64,000 nt of DNA. Source: Escherichia phage EAWsc9. The notes below the pieces were generated by a model. That model made no database searches, had not been told where the DNA came from, and saw only the letters and a program-made list of their open reading frames with translations. Positions 54,161-64,000 of the stretch are shown one piece after another. How positions within the stretch are numbered: the stretch's first letter is position 1; every line of letters starts with the position of its first letter. The position numbers were made by a program, and so were the translations under genes. The stretch is from the sequence record PQ341120.1; one strand, written 5' to 3'.

Positions 54161-57100
54161 ATGGCCGATATTTTAAAACCAGCATTCAGAGCAACATCCG
54201 GTCTCGATGCTGCTGGTGAGAAAGTCATTAATGTCGCAAAAGCTGATTACTCAGTTTTATCAGACGGCGTTAACGTAGGTTTCTTTATAGAAGAAAACAC
54301 AGTTCAACAATATGATGCAACACGCGGATACAAAAAGAACTTTGCAGTTATTAATGATAACCGTATTTGGGTTGCTCAACGTGATATTCCGGCACCAGCT
54401 GGAGCATTTACCCCTCAGTATTGGTTAGCAACTCGTACTGACCCGAAATGGGAAACTGTTGCATCTCCAACTCGTCAGCTTAGCTCCGGTGAATTTATCG
54501 CAGTCGACTCAGCTGCAAGCTTTACCACATTTACATTGCCTCCGAACCCGACTGATGGTGATACCATCGTTATTAAAGATATCGGCGGTAATACCGGTTA
54601 TAATGAAATTAAAATCCAGTCAAGCAACGTGCCTGGCCAAGGTAACCAAAAGATTGTTCGCTTTGGTAATCAGTATTCAGAAGTTTTAATTACCAAACCA
54701 TTCTCTTATAACATGCTTATCTTTTCAAACCGCTTATGGCAATTTTGGGAAGCAGGTAACGAAGAACGTGGTATCAGAGTAGAACCGTCGACCGGACGTT
54801 TCCATGCACAAGCTGGCGACTTTATTATGCGTCGTTATACAACTGGTGCACCGATTACTTTCATTCTTCCTAAGTATGCAAACCAGGGTGATATTGTCAA
54901 ATCTGTTGATATCGATGGCATGGGGCCAACGTTCCACCTGATGGTTGAAACCTTTGACACCAGTTCCAGTCTTGGGAAAGCTGGCCAGCATCAAATGGAA
55001 TTCCGTACCACAGGTGATGGTTTCTTCGTTTATAATGCTGCCGAAAAACTCTGGTATGTTTGGGACGGTGATTTTAAAACTCGTCTTCGCGTTATTCGCG
55101 ACAGCGTTAAACTTTTACCAAACGAAAGTGTCATTGTATTTGGCGAAGATAACTCAACTCCGGCAACGATTAATATCGATTTGCCAACTAATGTTTTGCA
55201 AGGCGATATTGTTAAGATTGCGCTGAACTATCTCCGTAAATCGCAGACTGTTAATATAAGAGCTGCTGTTGGCGATAAGATTGCAACTGACATTAAATTG
55301 CTGCAATTCCCTAAACGTTCCGAGTATCCACCAGATACAACTTGGGTGATGGTTGATTCATTGACCTTTAATGGCAACATCAGTTATACTCCGGTTATTG
55401 AATTATCATATGCAGAAGATGCAGTGTCTGGAACAAGTTATTGGGTTGTCGCTCAGAACGTCCCGACTGTCGAACGAGTTGACTCATTAAATGATTCCAC
55501 GCGTACACGTCTTGGTGTTATTGCTCTGGCAAACCAGACTCAGGCAAACGTTGACCATGAAAATAACCCAGAAAAAGAACTCGCAATTACCCCTCAGACT
55601 TTAGCCAACCGTGTTGCTAAAGAGAACCAACGAGGCATTGCCAGAATCGCAACGACTGCCCAAGTAAATCAGAACAGTGATTTTGCATTTGTTGATGATG
55701 TAATTATTTCTCCGAAAAAACTCAATGAACGTACGGCAACAGAAACGAGACGTGGGCTCGCAGAACTCGCCACACAGCAAGAAACCAATGCGGGTGTAGA
55801 TGATACCACAATTATAACTCCAAAGAAACTGCAAGCTCGCCAGGGCTCAGAATCGCTATCTGGTATTGTAACTTACGTTTCAACGACTGGTGCAACTCCT
55901 GCCGCTTCGCGTGAATTAAATGGTACAAACGTTTATAATAAAAATACGGTTAATCTGGTTGTTTCTCCGAAAGCTCTTGACCAGTACAAAGCTACTTACA
56001 CTCAGCAAGGCGCGGTTATTCTTGCGGTTGAAAGTGAAGTAATCGCTGGTACTTCTCAATCTGGCTGGGCAAACGCAGTCGTTACTCCAGAAATGTTGCA
56101 TCGCAAAACTGCTCTTGATTCCCGTATCGGTTTAATCGAGATTGCTACTCAGGTTGAAACAGATGCAGGAACCGATTATACCAGAGCTGTGACTCCTAAA
56201 ACGTTAAATGACCGTAAAGCATCAGAAACGTTAACCGGCATAGCCGAGATTGCTACGCAATCAGAATTTGATACTGGAACTGATGATACTCGTATCTCAA
56301 CTCCATTAAAAATTAAAAATAGATTTAATAATACTGCTCGTACTTCTGTTAATGCATTAAGTGGTTTAGTAGAAACAGGGACGCTCTGGGACCATTATAG
56401 CCTGAATATTCTTGAAGCAAATGAGACTCAGCGTGGCACAGCAAGATTAGCAACTCAGGGTGAAGTCAATACTGGCACTGACGATAAAACAATCGTTACT
56501 CCGCTTAAATTGATGTCGAAAAAAGCCACTGAAAACGCCGAAGGTATTGTTCGCATCGCGACAAACGCAGAAGCAACAGCAGGCACATCAAAAGTCTTGG
56601 CCATTAGTCCGTCTGCGCTGAAATATATTGCCCAAACGGAAACAACTTGGGAAGCATCTGAAACACTGCGTGGATTTGTTCGTTTATCTTCCGGTGCAGC
56701 TACTTCGGCCGCAACTACAACGACGGGCGCGGGATTTACATATGAAAATGGTGTGTATACCCCGGACCCAAGTAAACTGGTTAGCTATGCGAAATCTGGA
56801 TATGCAGTTTCGCCTTACGAATTAAACCGCGTATTGCAAAACTTCTTACCGATAAATGCGATGGCTGTTAATGCTGAAAAACTGGATAACCTCGATTCGA
56901 CCCAGTTTATTCGTCGTGATATTGCTCAGACTGTTGAAGGTGTATTAACCCTTACTAAGCAGACAAATATATCTGCTCCGGTTGTATCGACGAGCACTGC
57001 GGTGTTTACTGATGTAACGGCTGGTACTTCGACGTTCGGAACTGTGAATGTTGTTAATGGAACTAACAAGTGGAAAATCACTGCTCCTTCCACCGGAACG

Positions 57101-58117
57101 ACAATGACTATTGGTGATACGACTAACGTATTGACATTAAACACCGCCTCGGGTAATGCTGCAGTATTGAACAACCTTAGCGCCGGAAATGATGTTCAAG
57201 CCAAAAATAATTACGTTCTAAATGGTCGTACTATCGCAACCACGACGGGTGAAGTTTCTGGTGCAACTTTGTCTCTGGGTGATAACTCACAGAATTTAGT
57301 GCTCAAAACTCTTGATGCTGGTAATATCATAGCAAATGGTGGCGGTGCATTTAAAGTTCTGACCGAGAAAAACGCAGTAGAAATTGTTGATAGAAACTTT
57401 GTTAACCAGGCTGGTGATACAATGTCTGGTGTACTCCGTGTGAATGCTCCAGTCCGTGTATTCGGTACGAAACCAAGTCTTATCGCACAAGCTCCGACTG
57501 CGGATACTGTTGGTTTCTGGTCTGTCGATATCAATGATGAACCGACTTATAGCCAGTTCCCTGGTTATTGGACAATGAAGTTAAAACGTCAAGTAAACAT
57601 TGATACGGTTCAAACTAAACCTGCTGGGGTAACTGATGAAGTTTGGAATGCTTCTGGTTGGTTAACTGAAAACGGAACTTTTGCCTCGCCCGCTATTCGT
57701 TATCGTACTGATGATGGTACACTCGGTGATGAAGTATTAGGTAGCTCCGGACAGAAACTGCGCGGAACCTGGTTTGACTATTCAGTTCGTGATAAACAAA
57801 TTAAATATCCTGGTACATTGACTCAGTTTGGTAATACGCTAGATTCGTGCTATCAAGATTGGGTTTGTTATCCAACTGGATTGAACGGTGGTACTATTCG
57901 TTATACTCGTACATGGCAGAAAAATAAATCAGCATGGACGACTTTCGCAATGGTTTACACCGCGGATAACCCTCCGTCTGCAGAGGATGTTGGTGCATTA
58001 CCGGCTGACAACACAACGATGGGGAACTTAACCATTCTTGATTGGTTACGTATCGGTAACGTGCGTATCATCCCAGACCCGACCACTAAATCCGTTAAGT
58101 TTGAATGGATTGAATAA
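54161..58117 (+). CDS. 34: Long tail fibre proximal subunit, 1318 aa
   Basis: Size and position (after rnh, before 35); internal repeated segments typical of gp34; TATAAATA about 30 nt upstream. Confidence 0.95.
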   Translation: MADILKPAFRATSGLDAAGEKVINVAKADYSVLSDGVNVGFFIEENTVQQYDATRGYKKNFAVINDNRIWVAQRDIPAPAGAFTPQYWLATRTDPKWETVASPTRQLSSGEFIAVDSAASFTTFTLPPNPTDGDTIVIKDIGGNTGYNEIKIQSSNVPGQGNQKIVRFGNQYSEVLITKPFSYNMLIFSNRLWQFWEAGNEERGIRVEPSTGRFHAQAGDFIMRRYTTGAPITFILPKYANQGDIVKSVDIDGMGPTFHLMVETFDTSSSLGKAGQHQMEFRTTGDGFFVYNAAEKLWYVWDGDFKTRLRVIRDSVKLLPNESVIVFGEDNSTPATINIDLPTNVLQGDIVKIALNYLRKSQTVNIRAAVGDKIATDIKLLQFPKRSEYPPDTTWVMVDSLTFNGNISYTPVIELSYAEDAVSGTSYWVVAQNVPTVERVDSLNDSTRTRLGVIALANQTQANVDHENNPEKELAITPQTLANRVAKENQRGIARIATTAQVNQNSDFAFVDDVIISPKKLNERTATETRRGLAELATQQETNAGVDDTTIITPKKLQARQGSESLSGIVTYVSTTGATPAASRELNGTNVYNKNTVNLVVSPKALDQYKATYTQQGAVILAVESEVIAGTSQSGWANAVVTPEMLHRKTALDSRIGLIEIATQVETDAGTDYTRAVTPKTLNDRKASETLTGIAEIATQSEFDTGTDDTRISTPLKIKNRFNNTARTSVNALSGLVETGTLWDHYSLNILEANETQRGTARLATQGEVNTGTDDKTIVTPLKLMSKKATENAEGIVRIATNAEATAGTSKVLAISPSALKYIAQTETTWEASETLRGFVRLSSGAATSAATTTTGAGFTYENGVYTPDPSKLVSYAKSGYAVSPYELNRVLQNFLPINAMAVNAEKLDNLDSTQFIRRDIAQTVEGVLTLTKQTNISAPVVSTSTAVFTDVTAGTSTFGTVNVVNGTNKWKITAPSTGTTMTIGDTTNVLTLNTASGNAAVLNNLSAGNDVQAKNNYVLNGRTIATTTGEVSGATLSLGDNSQNLVLKTLDAGNIIANGGGAFKVLTEKNAVEIVDRNFVNQAGDTMSGVLRVNAPVRVFGTKPSLIAQAPTADTVGFWSVDINDEPTYSQFPGYWTMKLKRQVNIDTVQTKPAGVTDEVWNASGWLTENGTFASPAIRYRTDDGTLGDEVLGSSGQKLRGTWFDYSVRDKQIKYPGTLTQFGNTLDSCYQDWVCYPTGLNGGTIRYTRTWQKNKSAWTTFAMVYTADNPPSAEDVGALPADNTTMGNLTILDWLRIGNVRIIPDPTTKSVKFEWIE

Positions 58118-58125
58118 GAGGTAAT

Positions 58126-59256
58126 ATGGAAAAATTTATGGCAGAGTTTGGACAAGGATACGTCCAAACGCCAGTTATATCAGAAAATAATGCCGTTAAA
58201 TTTAAAATGAGTATAGCAGGGAGCTGTACTCTTTCCACGGTGAAATCGTATATCAAATTTCAGGATGAACGAATTGGACCAACTACTTTTGGTAATGGTC
58301 TGACTCTATTGGAAATTGATACAACTACGAATAAAATTGTTAACACGAAAAACTATTCATTAACTAGCACACACGATGCAATCAGTCAGGCATTAATCAC
58401 CTTTGTGGAATCTGTTCCAGCCGGAAGATTGATTGCTTTTATTTCTTCAGGGAAACTAAATGCATCACAGACATTAATTGATTGGTTCCGTAAATGTGGT
58501 TCAAGAGCATTCCCGGAGAAATGGCTGATTGATAAAGTTGATACATCGTACTCGGCCTTTTATATAACCGGCCGGAATGTAATTGTTTCGGAGCATGTTA
58601 AGTATAATGACGGGAAGTTAGTTGAGGATGTTTCGACTCCGCTTGAAGTCATTTATGATACCTTTAGTGATATAGGAGCAACAGGCTATCCTGTACGCAT
58701 AACGGAAGACGAGAGCACGTATTCATCAACAGGTGATGGAACATCAACCACAATTAAAAGGTTCCCCACAGAGGACCTGGTGACTCCTATGGACACCTAT
58801 AACCTTTTACCTTTGGATGTGCTTTACTTGAAGTTTCAGATGTCATTTGACGCTGCACTGAAAGCTGCGGGGACCGTAAGGACTTCGATTCGATTCTTTA
58901 AAAGCCCCAGCACTTCTCCGATATCAAATACGAACATCGATATTGCAGCAAACGTTCCTGCCGGGGCTTGGGCGAGTTTCGAAAGATATGTCGAGATTCC
59001 GCCAGGAGCTGATGGCTTTACAGTAGTAACATCAAGAACTGTAGCTACCGGAACTGGGTCAATACGCAATATTGTTATTGGTGAGATAACCAGAGGTGAC
59101 TCGGCATTCAAACCAGCTGAATTTGGTGTCAACGGCATAAGGATGTCATATGCAAACGATACAACAAATACAGGCAATACAATTGTAACATTCCCGGATG
59201 CACAAGCTCCGAGAGCCGGCAAGATATACGCAGCCGAACTACGAGAAAAACAATAG
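58126..59256 (+). CDS. 35: Long tail fibre hinge (knee) protein, 376 aa
   Basis: Size and synteny with T4 gp35; AAGAGG RBS; terminator follows. Confidence 0.9.
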   Translation: MEKFMAEFGQGYVQTPVISENNAVKFKMSIAGSCTLSTVKSYIKFQDERIGPTTFGNGLTLLEIDTTTNKIVNTKNYSLTSTHDAISQALITFVESVPAGRLIAFISSGKLNASQTLIDWFRKCGSRAFPEKWLIDKVDTSYSAFYITGRNVIVSEHVKYNDGKLVEDVSTPLEVIYDTFSDIGATGYPVRITEDESTYSSTGDGTSTTIKRFPTEDLVTPMDTYNLLPLDVLYLKFQMSFDAALKAAGTVRTSIRFFKSPSTSPISNTNIDIAANVPAGAWASFERYVEIPPGADGFTVVTSRTVATGTGSIRNIVIGEITRGDSAFKPAEFGVNGIRMSYANDTTNTGNTIVTFPDAQAPRAGKIYAAELREKQ

Positions 59257-59279
59257 GACTCTTCGGAGTCCTTTTTTCG
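59256..59279 (+). terminator. Terminator after gene 35
   Basis: GGACTC-TTCG-GAGTCC followed by TTTTTT. Confidence 0.75.
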
Positions 59280-59280
59280 T

Positions 59281-59288
59281 TATAAATA
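59281..59288 (+). promoter_or_regulatory. Late promoter TATAAATA for gene 36
   Basis: Exact motif directly after the terminator that follows gene 35. Confidence 0.6.
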
Positions 59289-59323
59289 CAAAATATCATA
59301 TGCCGGTTGAAGAGGACTTATAA

Positions 59324-59971
59324 ATGGCAGATTTAAAACTAGGCTCAACAGCCGGAGGTTCGGTCCTCTGGCACCAGGGTAATTTCCCATTAACACCAGT
59401 CAGTAATGACTTATATTTCAAAACTTATAAAATTTATTCAGAATATAACAAGCCACAAGCAGTCGATAACGATTTTGTTTCTAAAGCTCTGGGTGGTAAT
59501 TATAAAGCAAACGTATATTTTGAACAAGGTCTAACATTTAACGATTCAAATGGTTACGGGATTAAGTTAGGAGCGAGAACAGGTGGTGCACCATTTACCG
59601 CATCTTTCCGTATTAAAGGACCATTCGGATTTGAGACTGAAACAGGAACACCATTCGTTATTTTTGACCCTGACACTACGACGGGAGCAAAACGTCTTAC
59701 TGTTATGGGTGATACGTTAGCTCGACAAATTTATGATGAAACAGGTCGTGTATTTTCTCCAGGGAATACTCCGTCAAAAGCTCAAGTTGGTCTTGGTAAT
59801 GTAACTAACCAGCAACAGGTAGAACTAAATAATAGTACATTGCAAACAATGACAGGTAACTTGTCAGCACCTAATTTCTTCTCTAGGAACCCAGCATCAG
59901 ACCCGGCCCATGTGCCTCGTTTTGACCAAATCGTTCTTAAAGACTCCGTACAAGATTTTGGATATTATTAA
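59324..59971 (+). CDS. 36: Long tail fibre distal subunit, small, 215 aa
   Basis: Size and synteny with T4 gp36; TATAAATA at about 59281..59288. Confidence 0.9.
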   Translation: MADLKLGSTAGGSVLWHQGNFPLTPVSNDLYFKTYKIYSEYNKPQAVDNDFVSKALGGNYKANVYFEQGLTFNDSNGYGIKLGARTGGAPFTASFRIKGPFGFETETGTPFVIFDPDTTTGAKRLTVMGDTLARQIYDETGRVFSPGNTPSKAQVGLGNVTNQQQVELNNSTLQTMTGNLSAPNFFSRNPASDPAHVPRFDQIVLKDSVQDFGYY

Positions 59972-59979
59972 GAGGCATT

Positions 59980-62900
59980 ATGGCTACTTTAAAACAAATA
60001 CAATTTAAAAGAAGTAAGGTTGCCGGCGTTCGTCCGGCGCCAACAGTTCTTGCTGAAGGTGAACTGGCTATCAACCTGAAAGACCGCTTACTTTTTACTA
60101 AAGATGACACCGGCGCCATTATCGACCTTGGTTTTGCCAAAGGCGGTAATATTGATGGTAATGTTATTCATAACGGTAATTACAATCAAACTGGTGATTA
60201 TACTCTGAATGGTACTTTTACTCAAACTGGTGATTTTAATTTAACCGGCATTGCTCGTGTAACTCGCGATATTATTGCCGCGGGTCAGATAATGACTGAA
60301 GGTGGTGAACTTATTTCTAAGAGTGCATCGACTTCGCATCTTCGTTTTTTTGATGGTGCATCACGCGAACGCGGTATTATCTTTTCTCCTAACAATGCGG
60401 GTTTGACAACTCAGGTAGTTAATATACGAGTGCAAGATTATGCCGCTGGTAGCGAAAGCACTTACGCGTTTTCGGGCAATGGTCAATTTACTTCACCTGA
60501 AGTATCAGCATGGAAATCTATTTCATCCCCACAAATTCTGACTGATAAAGTTATTACAAATGGTAAGAAAGCTGGTGATTACGATATCTATTCATTAGCA
60601 AATAATAATTCTAACACAGATAAAAATAATTTACGTGTTGTACGTACCGACGCAGCCGCCGCAATGCTCCATGAAATTTGTGAAAATAACGGTATCAGTT
60701 GGTATTCCGGTTCAACCCCTACTGATTATATGTTATCTTTTGCTTATTCAGGTGGTTTTCAAGCTGGACATTCGATTGCAGTGGGTATGGAATCAGGGCC
60801 TATGACATATTCAGCCTTAGGTAAAGGTTCTATTGCTCTTGGTGATAATGACACCGGGTTAAAATGGTACCAAGATGGTTATTTCTATGCAGTAAACAAT
60901 GGTACGAGAACTTTCCTTTACAGCCCTGAATCAACTGTAAGCCTTAGAAAAATGGTCATGGGTTATTCTGTAAACGGTAACGATTTAACTACGCCGCCGA
61001 CAGAAAACTATGCGCTTGGTACCGTTGTTACTTATCATGATAATAATGCCTTCGGTGATGGGCAAACTCTTTTAGGATATTATCAAGGTGGAGCATATCA
61101 CCACTATTTTCGTGGTAAAGGCACTACAAACATTAACACCACGGGTGGTTTGTTGGTGACTCCGGGTAATATCGATGTGATTGGCGGTTTAATTAATATC
61201 GACGGCCGCAGTAATGCTTCAACCTTACTGTTTAGTAGCTATACGTCTGGTCAAAGCTCTGTCGATAATATGAATATACGCGTTTGGGGCGATACTTTTA
61301 CCACTGTAGACGGTACTCGCAAAAACGTAATGGAAATATCTGATGCTACTAGCTGGATGCAATATATTCAACGAACAACTGCTGGTAAAGTCGAATCGGT
61401 TCTAAATGGCTCCCAGATTGTTAATGAAAACCTGACCGTAGTAAAAAATGCCACATTTGATGGTACAATCAGCGCACATGGTGAAATTGCAGGTAATGCT
61501 GTTAATGCCCTTAGAATTTGGAACGACGATTACGGTGCTATTTTCCGTCGCTCAGAAAACAGCCTTCATATTATTCCAACTGCCTATGGTGAAGGCAAAA
61601 ATGGCGATATCGGTCTACTTCGTCCGTTTAGTTTGTCTTTAGACACAGGTAAGGTTGTTATTCCTGACCTAGATTTGAGCTATGCTGGATTCCCTGCAAA
61701 CGGGTATATCAGATTTGGCGGTCATGGCGCTGGTGCCGGTGGATACGATATACAGTATTCACAAGCAGCCCCTGTTTTCCAAGAAATTGATGATGACGAG
61801 GTAAGTAAATATTATCCTATTGTTAAGCAGAAATTCTTACAAGGGGAAGCTGTTTGGTCTTTAGGTACTGAAATTAATTCCGGTACTTTTGTTTTACATC
61901 ATTTAAAAGAAGATGGAACACAAAATCATACCTCAAGATTTAATGCTGATGGTACAGTTAATTTCCCGGATAACGTTCAAGTCGGTGGTGGTGAAGCTAC
62001 TATTGCTAAAAATGGTAACATTTTCTCTGATATCTGGAAAACATTTACTTCAGCAGGCGATGTAACTAATATTCGCGATGCCATTGCTACTCGTGTTGCC
62101 AAAGAAGGCGATACAATGACTGGTAAATTGGTCATTGAGGCTCCTGGTGATGCTTTAGTATTAAGAACTAGCGCAGGTAATAGTTCACATATCCGTTCTG
62201 ATGTAAATGGTACCGGCAACTGGTATGTTGGTAAAGGTGGCAGCGATAATGGAATAGGCCTTTACAGCTATGCTACTAACTGTGGCCTGTATATCACCAA
62301 TAACGGTGAATTCAACGTAGACCTTTCTGGTGCTGGTCTGGCAATGCAGATGAATTATTATCGCATGTATGTTAACGGTCGAGCATGGGTTAATACTCAA
62401 GGTCATGGTTACGGAAACCAATGGCAAACAGAAGCTCCTTATTTCGTTGACTTTGGTGAATCCGTTCCTAAAGATAGTTATATGCCAATTATCAAAGGAA
62501 AAAGCACTCTAGCTACTGAAGGATATTCTACTAAAGCAGACTTCGGTATTATTAGATTGGGTGGAGCTGGTACTTGGGGTTCTGCTGTTATTCGTGTGGG
62601 TTCTGCTGAAAGCGGCGATGCAAGCCATCCTAATGCAATATTTGTATTTCAGGCTAATGGTGATTTTGTTGCACCTGCCGGTTTACGAGCCAGCGTTAAC
62701 CTAGGTGTGGGTACAATCCCGGTATGGGGTGGTGCGTCCATTGCTATTGGTGATAATGATACCGGTTTAGTTCATGGCGGCAACAGTCGAATTAATATGT
62801 ATGCTAACGCGCAGCATATTGCGTCATGGGGTACGATGTATCAATCTCATCCCGGCCTTTGGGACTCAAATGGAGCTTTTTGGACAGAAGTCGGCAAAGC

Positions 62901-63309
62901 AATTATTTCTCATGGCCATTTAGTTCAGGCGAATGACAGTTATTCCACATATGTCCGTGATGTTTATGTCCGTTCTGATATTCGCGTTAAAAAAGACCTC
63001 GTTAAATTTGAAAATGCTTCTCAGAAGCTTTCTAAAATTAACGGTTACACTTATATGCAGAAGCGTGGAACGGATGAAGAAGGTAATCAGAAATGGGAAC
63101 CTAACGCTGGTTTAATTGCTCAAGAAGTTCAAGCTATTTTACCTGAATTGGTTGAAGGTGACCCTAATGGTGAAGCTTTACTTCGTTTAAACTATAACGG
63201 TGTAATTGGTTTAAATACAGCTGCAATCAATGAGCACACTGCAGAAATAGCAGAATTGAAATCAGAGATTGAAGAACTTAAAGCATTAATTAAATCATTG
63301 TTAAAATAA
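59980..63309 (+). CDS. 37: Long tail fibre distal subunit, large, 1109 aa, with C-terminal chaperone-like domain
   Basis: Conserved gp37 N-terminus ([16 protein letters not shown]...[11 protein letters not shown]); C-terminal about 120 aa resembles an intramolecular chaperone / autoproteolytic domain with a terminal coiled coil. Confidence 0.93.
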
Positions 63310-63312
63310 TAA

Positions 63313-63330
63313 GAGGGGCTTCGGCCCCTT
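63313..63330 (+). terminator. GC hairpin between genes 37 and 38
   Basis: GGGGC-TTCG-GCCCC followed by the gene 38 RBS GGAGG; no T-run. Confidence 0.4.
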
Positions 63331-63340
63331 GGAGGTTTAT

Positions 63341-64000
63341 ATGGCAGTAGCAGGACCGTGGATAGGAACTTCTGCATTAGCTAATACAGGACAAAATTGG
63401 ATGGGCGGCGCTGCCCAACGATTGAGAATGGGTGCTCCGTTTTGGATGAGTAATATGGTAGGTCGGTCTGTTGAAGTAATTCACACACTTGGGGCCGACC
63501 ATAACTTTAATGGGCAATGGTTTAGAGACCGTTGTTTTGAAGCCGGTGCTGCACCTATTGTGTTTAACATCACCGGTGATTTAGTATCTTATACCAAAGA
63601 TGTTCCGTTGTTCTTTATGTACGGCGATACCCCTAATGAATACGTTACTTTGAATATTCACGGCGGGGTCCATATGTGGGGCCGTGGTGGTAACGGTGGG
63701 ACCCGTGTTTGGGTAGCGGGTACAAATGGTGGTGATGTAATTCAAAACGACATTGGGGGCAGACTCCGTATTTGGAACTATGGTGTTATAGCTTCAGGTG
63801 GCGGTGGTGGTGCCGGGTGTGCTTCAAATAACTCTTGGCTTGAGGCGGGTACAGCCGGTGGCGGCGGTGGTAGACCATATGGATTAGGTGGTACTAATGG
63901 TGCCGTAAACCCAGGTGGCAACGCTAGTTATACCGGGCCAGGTGGCGGTGGCAGCTTTGGTGGACAGTGGGGCGGTGGTAATGGCGGCGACGCGGGCGGT
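63341..64000 (+). CDS. 38: Tail fibre adhesin gp38 (T2/T6 type, glycine-rich motifs), 5' partial, continues past window end
   Basis: Hand-translated: conserved N-terminal gp37-attachment region ([36 protein letters not shown]) followed by poly-Gly motifs ([26 protein letters not shown]). Confidence 0.85.

Follow-up and report, generated by a model that had tools for sequence, protein, structure and literature searches.

A question raised by the end of the long-tail-fibre operon of Escherichia phage EAWsc9 is which of the two proteins at the fibre tip makes the contact with the host. It could be gp37 itself, with gp38 acting only during assembly, as in the T4-type fibre, or it could be gp38, sitting as an adhesin on the end of a gp37 that has cleaved itself, as in the T2-type fibre. 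Based on the analysis of the window, by which we mean the whole stretch of 64,000 nucleotides under study (record PQ341120.1), we consider that the locus encodes the host-range module of a T2-type rather than a T4-type T-even long tail fibre, consisting of a self-cleaving gp37 and a gp38 adhesin, and to this reading we give a probability of about 0.93.

Gene order and expression

The window ends with the T-even long-tail-fibre operon, all genes of which lie on the + strand: the ORFs of gp34 (54161-58117), gp35 (58126-59256), gp36 (59324-59971) and gp37, the distal long-tail-fibre subunit (59980-63309, 1109 residues and the stop codon), followed by gene 38, of which the first 220 codons are present (63341-64000) and which runs past the window end. 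The assignment of the latter to a T2-type adhesin rests on the in-frame ORF and on the Pfam and PDB matches described below. Over its last 24 kb the window is 94-96% identical in nucleotides to the Escherichia phages ECML-359, TH44, MN01 and UPEC07 and the Yersinia phage P8; the records of these and other relatives place them in Dhakavirus or Gaprivervirus, subfamily Tevenvirinae.

An exact-motif scan finds a T4-type late promoter, TATAAATA, upstream of gene 36 at 59281-59288 on the + strand, and in the fibre operon the motif occurs at only two positions, 54122 (before gene 34) and 59281. Since the same scan gives no occurrence from 59289 to 64000, genes 36, 37 and 38 are probably co-transcribed, as far as can be judged from the promoter motif; a late promoter of its own for gene 38 was considered and rejected, the motif being absent after 59281.

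Gene 38 lies directly downstream of gene 37, with a spacer of 31 nt from stop to start. The spacer contains a GGGGC-UUCG-GCCCC tetraloop hairpin (63314-63329, + strand; fold energy -17.8 kcal/mol, z -2.2) and a ribosome-binding site, GGAGG, read from the sequence at 63331-63335 on the + strand, 5 nt 5' of the gene 38 ATG. No U tract follows the hairpin on the + strand, and as the terminator scan reports the stem only on the - strand, the hairpin is not a + strand intrinsic terminator. The possibility that the GGGGCUUCGGCCCC hairpin is a terminator dividing genes 37 and 38 was thus rejected, there being no + strand U tract and the ribosome-binding site standing directly next to it. Stable UUCG tetraloop structures are reportedly typical of the intercistronic regions of T4, and the hairpin between genes 37 and 38 would be one of them. 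In P8, RB51, JS98, RB69, UP19 and T2 the gene directly after gene 38 is the holin gene t.

The C-terminal chaperone of gp37

The phage proteins closest to gp37, those of ECML-359 and TH41, are 87% identical to it over the full length, and an exact-protein look-up finds no record of the identical protein. At its C-terminus, residues 999-1058 match the Pfam family PF13884, Peptidase_S74 ('Chaperone of endosialidase'), with 47.6 bits and an E-value of 2.1e-12 over profile positions 1-57 of 58; with the family cut-off at 22 bits, the match is far above chance. The domain opens with an S-D-x-R-x-K motif, S999-D-I-R-V-K1004, coded from nucleotide 62974. Among 14 homologs, all of which carry PF13884, the serine is invariant and the aspartate, arginine and lysine are each at least 90% conserved, and the equivalent motifs in other proteins are SDRRIK (S16), SDERLK (8JOV), SDERHK at residue 1 (3GUD) and ADLRAK (the MyRF construct 7DC3). 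We take S999 and K1004 to be the putative catalytic pair. For the catalytic residues of this motif, PMC7917993 cites Schulz et al. 2010.

The profile built from the homologs matches the MyRF ICA domain 7DC3 (E 2e-11), the tail fibre 8JOV (E 4e-8) and 3GUD, the GA-1 neck-appendage chaperone, the deposited chain of which begins exactly at the aligned serine. In the AlphaFold model of residues 989-1109 (121 residues, pLDDT 86.4) there are strands at model positions 34-57 and a helix at 84-120. The latter, which corresponds to residues ~1072-1108 (63193-63303, + strand) and has pLDDT of 90-98, would probably form a coiled-coil in the trimer, judging from the model. When the model was searched against the PDB with Foldseek, the top matches were 7DC3 (E 8.5e-6, TM 0.65) and 3GW6, the 'Intramolecular Chaperone' of the K1F endosialidase (probability 0.94-0.99); the next match has a probability of 0.11, and no other is convincing. 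The rmsd of the 3GW6 match is high, 17-19 A, because the long helix is placed differently in the monomer model. It is noted that 3GW6, 3GUD and 7DC3 share with gp37 the Peptidase_S74 family, the Ser/Lys motif at the start of the domain and, by Foldseek, the fold, whereas the cargo is different, being a tailspike, an appendage and a eukaryotic transcription factor, respectively, and the sequence identity is only 11-27%.

Family match, motif conservation, homolog profile and fold together support the assignment of residues 999-1109 (62974-63306, + strand) to an S74-type intramolecular chaperone. The preliminary description had taken its quoted peptide for the C-terminus of gp37, which it is, belonging to the 1109-residue ORF at 59980-63309 on the + strand, and had seen in it a chaperone-like domain of roughly 120 residues; the nature of the domain is borne out, and its length comes to 111 residues.

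The predicted cleavage site

Immediately before the chaperone, residues 916-998 of gp37 (62725-62973, + strand), which end in DVYVR and are assigned to the mature distal tip, align with residues 23-92 of the trimeric tip of phage S16 (6F45_A). For the whole of residues 916-1109 the comparison with this S16 gp37 construct gives 120 bits and an E-value of 5e-42, with the cleavage motif included: DVYVR^SDIRVKK of gp37 falls on DLNVS^SDRRIKK of S16, and the T2 equivalent is NVYIR-SDIRLK. In S16, autocleavage is reported to take place between the two serines of DLNVS^SDRRIKK after trimerisation and to free the last 113 residues, i.e. the intramolecular chaperone, by which the docking surface for gp38 is exposed (PMC7917993). 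For related Yersinia phages, cleavage has been predicted after DVYIR (PMC7917993), and for T2 and T6 proteolytic processing of the gp37 C-terminus was reported in 1986 (Trojet et al. 2011, PMC3157838).

By analogy with these systems, gp37 probably cleaves itself at R998^S999 (62971-62976, + strand), the site being predicted from the alignment with the S16 and T2 motifs; from the S16 and T2/T6 precedents we infer that the chaperone would be released autoproteolytically after trimerisation. The DVYVR end is predicted to serve as the docking surface for gp38, S16 and the fPS phages being the precedent for such a role of the five terminal residues of the tip (PMC7917993).

The resemblance to S16 (PDB 6F45; Dunne et al. 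2018; PMC6851490, PMC7917993) thus covers the trimeric gp37 tip and the S74 chaperone with its cleavage, here predicted, before S-D-x-R-x-K-K. In the pre-cleavage tip the similarity is no more than loose, gp37 of the window having an insertion of ~11 residues, and the host of S16 is Salmonella.

gp38 as a T2/T6/S16-type adhesin

The 220 residues of gp38 in the window are covered by two Pfam families, PF21721 (Gp38_N, residues 1-40, E 3.8e-20) and PF05268 (GP38, residues 45-219, E 1.7e-66). The first of them marks the N-terminal attachment domain (63341-63460, + strand), in which three tryptophans, W7, W20 and W35, do not vary among the 13 adhesins aligned, those of T6, M1 and an S16-like gp38 included. 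In the S16 structure the three tryptophans of gp38 are the prongs that plug into gp37 (PMC6851490). S16 gp38 is monomeric and combines such a three-tryptophan attachment domain with a beta-helix and a polyglycine sandwich, a plan to which gp38 of the window corresponds.

Among solved structures the best match is 9V85, with an E-value of 6e-71 over residues 37-219; S16 gp38 (6F45_D) follows with 3e-44. The entry 9V85 is the sfGFP-fused receptor-binding domain of gp38 of PP01, which binds OmpC (PMC12892980). With gp38 of T2, which has the same two Pfam domains, the identity is 45% (E 9e-33). In T2 and T6 a C-terminally processed gp37 is capped by a gp38 of ~260 residues (Drexler, Riede and Henning 1986; PMC3157838), and the gp38 proteins of both have glycine-rich motifs and hypervariable segments, as has that of the window: glycine accounts for 39% of residues 110-220 vs 13% of residues 1-109, and the conserved motifs GRGGNGG, SGGGGG, GGGGGRPxGxGG and GNGGD, which are also those of PP01, alternate with variable blocks. 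From these matches, the identity of gp38 as a T2/T6/S16-type adhesin, not a T4-type assembly chaperone, is well supported at the level of sequence, as the preliminary description had held for the gene following gene 37 and its glycine-rich motifs.

Complete relatives of gp38 have 260 residues, so only ~40 C-terminal residues lie beyond the window. In P8, TH44 and JS98 the part beyond base 64000 contains a fourth variable segment, the last glycine motif and a conserved end (...W..G.IYG..L); in relatives this end reads ...GAAGRAVFGSSPSWGATGTIYGSWL and is followed by the holin gene t. Of the aligned homologs two, from RZ and Bp7, diverge at the C-terminus, apparently through frameshifts. An exact 38-mer and an exact 29-mer from the 5' end of gene 38 have no match in the IMG/VR and JGI metagenomes.

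Proposed assembly pathway

Based on the features above, we propose that the tip is assembled as follows. Three gp37 chains would form the distal beta-helical fibre, the trimer being nucleated and brought into register by the last 111 residues, S999-K1109, as the intramolecular chaperone. The chaperone would then cut itself off between R998 and S999 by means of Ser999 and Lys1004 of the S-D-x-R-x-K motif, and its release would expose a blunt fibre end terminating in DVYVR. On this end one gp38 monomer would dock via the three helices of its attachment domain, using W7, W20 and W35 as the prongs. The remainder of gp38 would form a short beta-helix with a polyglycine-II sandwich made of the glycine-rich motifs, and the variable loops between these motifs would touch an outer-membrane protein of the host, giving the receptor specificity. 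Note that the cleavage, the 3:1 stoichiometry and the receptor binding in this pathway are carried over from S16, T2 and other homologs.

Variable segments and receptor specificity

The variable blocks were defined by column conservation over 79 full-length gp38 homologs and examined in the alignments. Three of them, all on the + strand, lie in the window: segment 1, residues ~121-129 (63701-63727), which reads TRVWVAGTN and stands between GRGGNGG and NGG; segment 2, residues ~160-172 (63818-63856), between SGGGGGAG and GGGGGRP; and segment 3, residues ~186-212 (63896-63976). The earlier statement that the specificity segments are cut off at the window end thus holds for the fourth segment, which lies beyond 64000, and has to be corrected for segments 1-3, which lie inside. 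In other phages the specificity goes with the C-terminal part of gp38 (PMC3157838; bioRxiv 10.64898/2026.04.02.716166), and in segment 3 a single change, Q206L, switches RB51/RB68 between OmpF and OmpW (bioRxiv 10.64898/2026.04.02.716166).

In segments 1-3 the window does not differ from P8, and it is nearly identical to JS98 and TH44. With the characterised alleles the agreement is lower: identity in the variable regions is 50-70% for the compared alleles of RB51 (OmpF) and the PP01-like PSD2001, with 60-65% for the RB51 segments, and 33-56% for T6, although the beta-helix of T6 gp38 is 86% identical. For the gp38 of the S16-like phage SEA1, taken as a proxy for S16, the identity is 37-61% in the compared segments and the variable loops are unrelated. 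The receptor of T2 is FadL. That of T6 is Tsx (PMC3157838), and because of the divergence in the variable regions neither specificity can be transferred to the window. The same applies to PP01: all three variable segments differ, e.g. WAAGAIGAS vs TRVWVAGTN of the window, so OmpC specificity should not be assumed in spite of the close structural match. In the literature searched, receptors are published for RB51 (OmpF), RB68 (OmpW), PP01 (OmpC), LHE83 (OmpA) and T6-like alleles (Tsx), and none for the allele of the P8/TH44/JS98 type. As the variable loops differ too much, no receptor is transferable from the characterised alleles.

One may speculate that the loops of the P8/TH44/JS98 type recognise an outer-membrane protein outside the set of Tsx, OmpA, OmpC, OmpF, FadL and OmpW, or that they are the basis of the crossing from E. 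coli to Yersinia represented by phage P8; we consider this unlikely. If it were true, the combination of these loops with the attachment module of the UP19 type, described next, would be a natural transplantation of a receptor module at a domain boundary.

Recombinant origin of the fibre tip

The fibre-tip module is a recombinant. Compared over 62900-63500 in steps of 100-nt windows, the Dhakavirus UP19 is 87-99% identical to the window in nucleotides, and residues 1-44 of its gp38 are identical at all 44 positions; the body of its gp38 is different, with 61-66% nucleotide identity. Residues 41-220 of gp38 are instead 99-100% identical to those of P8 and TH44 and 94-100% identical to those of JS98. 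Among the informative sites at 63300-63449, 26 agree with UP19 only vs 0 with P8 only, and at 63496-64000 the proportion is reversed, with 136 agreeing with P8 only vs 9 with UP19 only. This switch places the crossover within 63436-63495 (+ strand), with UP19-like sequence upstream and P8/TH44/JS98-like sequence downstream. The gp37 tip, the chaperone and codons 1-32 of gp38 are accordingly of the UP19 type, and gp38 from 63496 is of the P8/TH44/JS98 type. Along gp37, the nucleotide identity to P8 and TH44 is high at the N-terminus, falls along the shaft and tip to 45-65% (P8) and 48-89% (TH44), and is back above 90% from ~62950, across the chaperone and gp38. In the comparison with the relatives UP19, P8, TH44 and JS98, no single record has the combination of a UP19-type tip and a P8-type gp38 body.

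The crossover falls where the attachment domain of gp38 gives way to the beta-helix. In chimeras of T2 and PP01, the gp38 of PP01 is non-functional on the T2 gp37 unless the N-terminal 113 residues are exchanged (PMC12892980), and the position of the crossover is consistent with such a need for the attachment domain of gp38 to remain with its gp37 tip.

Alternative explanations

It might be supposed that the fibre is of the T4 type, so that the receptor is bound by the tip of gp37 itself and gp38 serves merely as an assembly chaperone, absent from the virion. The only point in favour of this is the inherited annotation 'distal long tail fiber assembly catalyst', which JS98, RB69, wV7 and other homologs carry. 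By contrast, the gp37 of T4 aligns with residues 1-641 only, at 35% identity; it has a Phage_fiber domain and, at its end, a Collar domain and a His-rich needle, but no S74 domain, whereas gp37 of the window has neither a Collar nor a Phage_fiber domain. An alignment of the gp37 C-terminus throughout with the T4 fibre, against which the preliminary description had set its chaperone, is not what is seen, as the T4 match ends at residue 641 and the S74 motif is present. Nor does BLASTP, with E-values as high as 10 allowed, find a match of gp38 to its T4 namesake, which has neither of the two Pfam domains found in T2 gp38 and in the window. The matches of gp38 are with the solved adhesins 6F45_D and 9V85, and the RB69 record itself notes that the unrelated 'gp38' of the T2 subfamily is the adhesin. 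We thus regard a T4-type fibre as extremely improbable. For the Dhakavirus LHE83, blocking of adsorption by anti-gp38 serum has been reported (PMC10987938).

A different arrangement within the T2-like composition would be that the S74-like domain is retained as a permanent C-terminal knob of gp37, with gp38 bound elsewhere or not at all. This is at odds with the intact Ser, Asp, Arg and Lys of the motif, with the residue-for-residue alignment of the site with the experimentally cleaved S16 site, and with the conservation of the attachment tryptophans of gp38, the docking of which, on the S16 model, needs the end exposed by cleavage; we consider a retained knob very improbable. About equally improbable, in our view, is that gene 38 is defective, by a frameshift or truncation past the window, and the module non-functional as read. 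The window does end at codon 220, and the homologs of RZ and Bp7 do have aberrant C-termini; these, however, may result from errors in sequencing or annotation, and in RZ both the DNA and the protein matches end at or near the last base of its record, 170318. Moreover, all 220 codons are open, and those from residue 41 share 99-100% identity with the intact 260-residue genes of P8 and TH44. Nothing in the sequence speaks against the self-cleaving gp37 with its gp38 adhesin, which is retained as the preferred reading of the locus.

Concluding remarks

The fibre-tip module of the window has the standard T2-type architecture, the genetics of which have been known since the 1980s and the structure since 2018. 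What is added here is limited to the coordinates of the predicted cleavage site and of the domains, the recombination junction and the correction on the variable segments, and beyond correct annotation the importance is little. With regard to annotation, homologs of gp38 carry misleading labels such as 'assembly catalyst' and 'tail protein and peptidase'. Since the tip is of the T2 type, gp38, and not gp37, would determine the host range, which is of use for receptor prediction and for the engineering of host range by exchange of the part of gene 38 that begins with the beta-helix domain.

Gp38 homologs in the databases

It is noted that two of the database homologs of the gp38 adhesin, those of phage RZ (P0001) and phage Bp7 (P0005), become wholly unlike all the other gp38s after residue ~215–225 in the alignment of the homologs (A1). 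Judged from the alignment, this C-terminal divergence looks such as a frameshift would produce. It is also noted that in the RZ record both the DNA and the protein matches end at or near its final base, 170318.

Another database protein, P0084 (303 aa), which comes from an E. coli assembly, joins parts of two fibre proteins. Its N-terminal part corresponds to the first ~157 residues of a gp38, with the attachment domain, the beta-helix and the first glycine motifs, and this part is fused to a gp37-like tip that ends with NDVYIR-SDRRLK and is followed by a complete S74 chaperone domain, the C-terminal intramolecular chaperone of gp37. P0084 may be a chimera arising from the assembly or the annotation, or it may be a real recombinant between gene 38 and gene 37.

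The labels of the gp38 adhesin homologs are inconsistent, with 'tail protein and peptidase', 'distal long tail fiber assembly catalyst' and 'hypothetical protein' present among the records of phage P8 (locus L001, 4001–4783), the UFV phages, JS98, RB69 and wV7. As a guess, the 'peptidase' label may have been carried over from the S74 domain of the adjoining gp37. The close relatives of the genome are also split between two genera, with TH44 being filed under Gaprivervirus and both UP19 and JS98 under Dhakavirus, and because of this split the best hits alone do not settle the genus of the phage studied here.

Hairpins and domains of the fibre operon

At the gene ends of the fibre operon two G+C-rich hairpins with the UUCG tetraloop are present. 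Directly after the one 3' of gene 35 (59255–59272) comes a T tract, with the late promoter (59281) next in line, and the one 3' of gene 37 (63314–63329) has no T tract.

The tail-fibre hinge protein gp35 (58126–59256) matches in its residues 57–128 the Pfam domain PF15711 (ILEI), the interleukin-like EMT inducer or FAM3-type domain, with 30.2 bits versus the cut-off of 27 bits, and gp35 of T4 likewise matches PF15711, with 35.9 bits. The match links the phage hinge protein to a domain of eukaryotic secreted proteins.

Inside the shaft of gp37, residues 444–550 (61309–61629) match the Gp34_trimer domain of Pfam (PF21446, E 7e-8), and this region aligns to the solved T4 gp34 fragments 4UXE and 5NXF. 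The Gp34_trimer domain is a module common to the proximal and distal fibre subunits.
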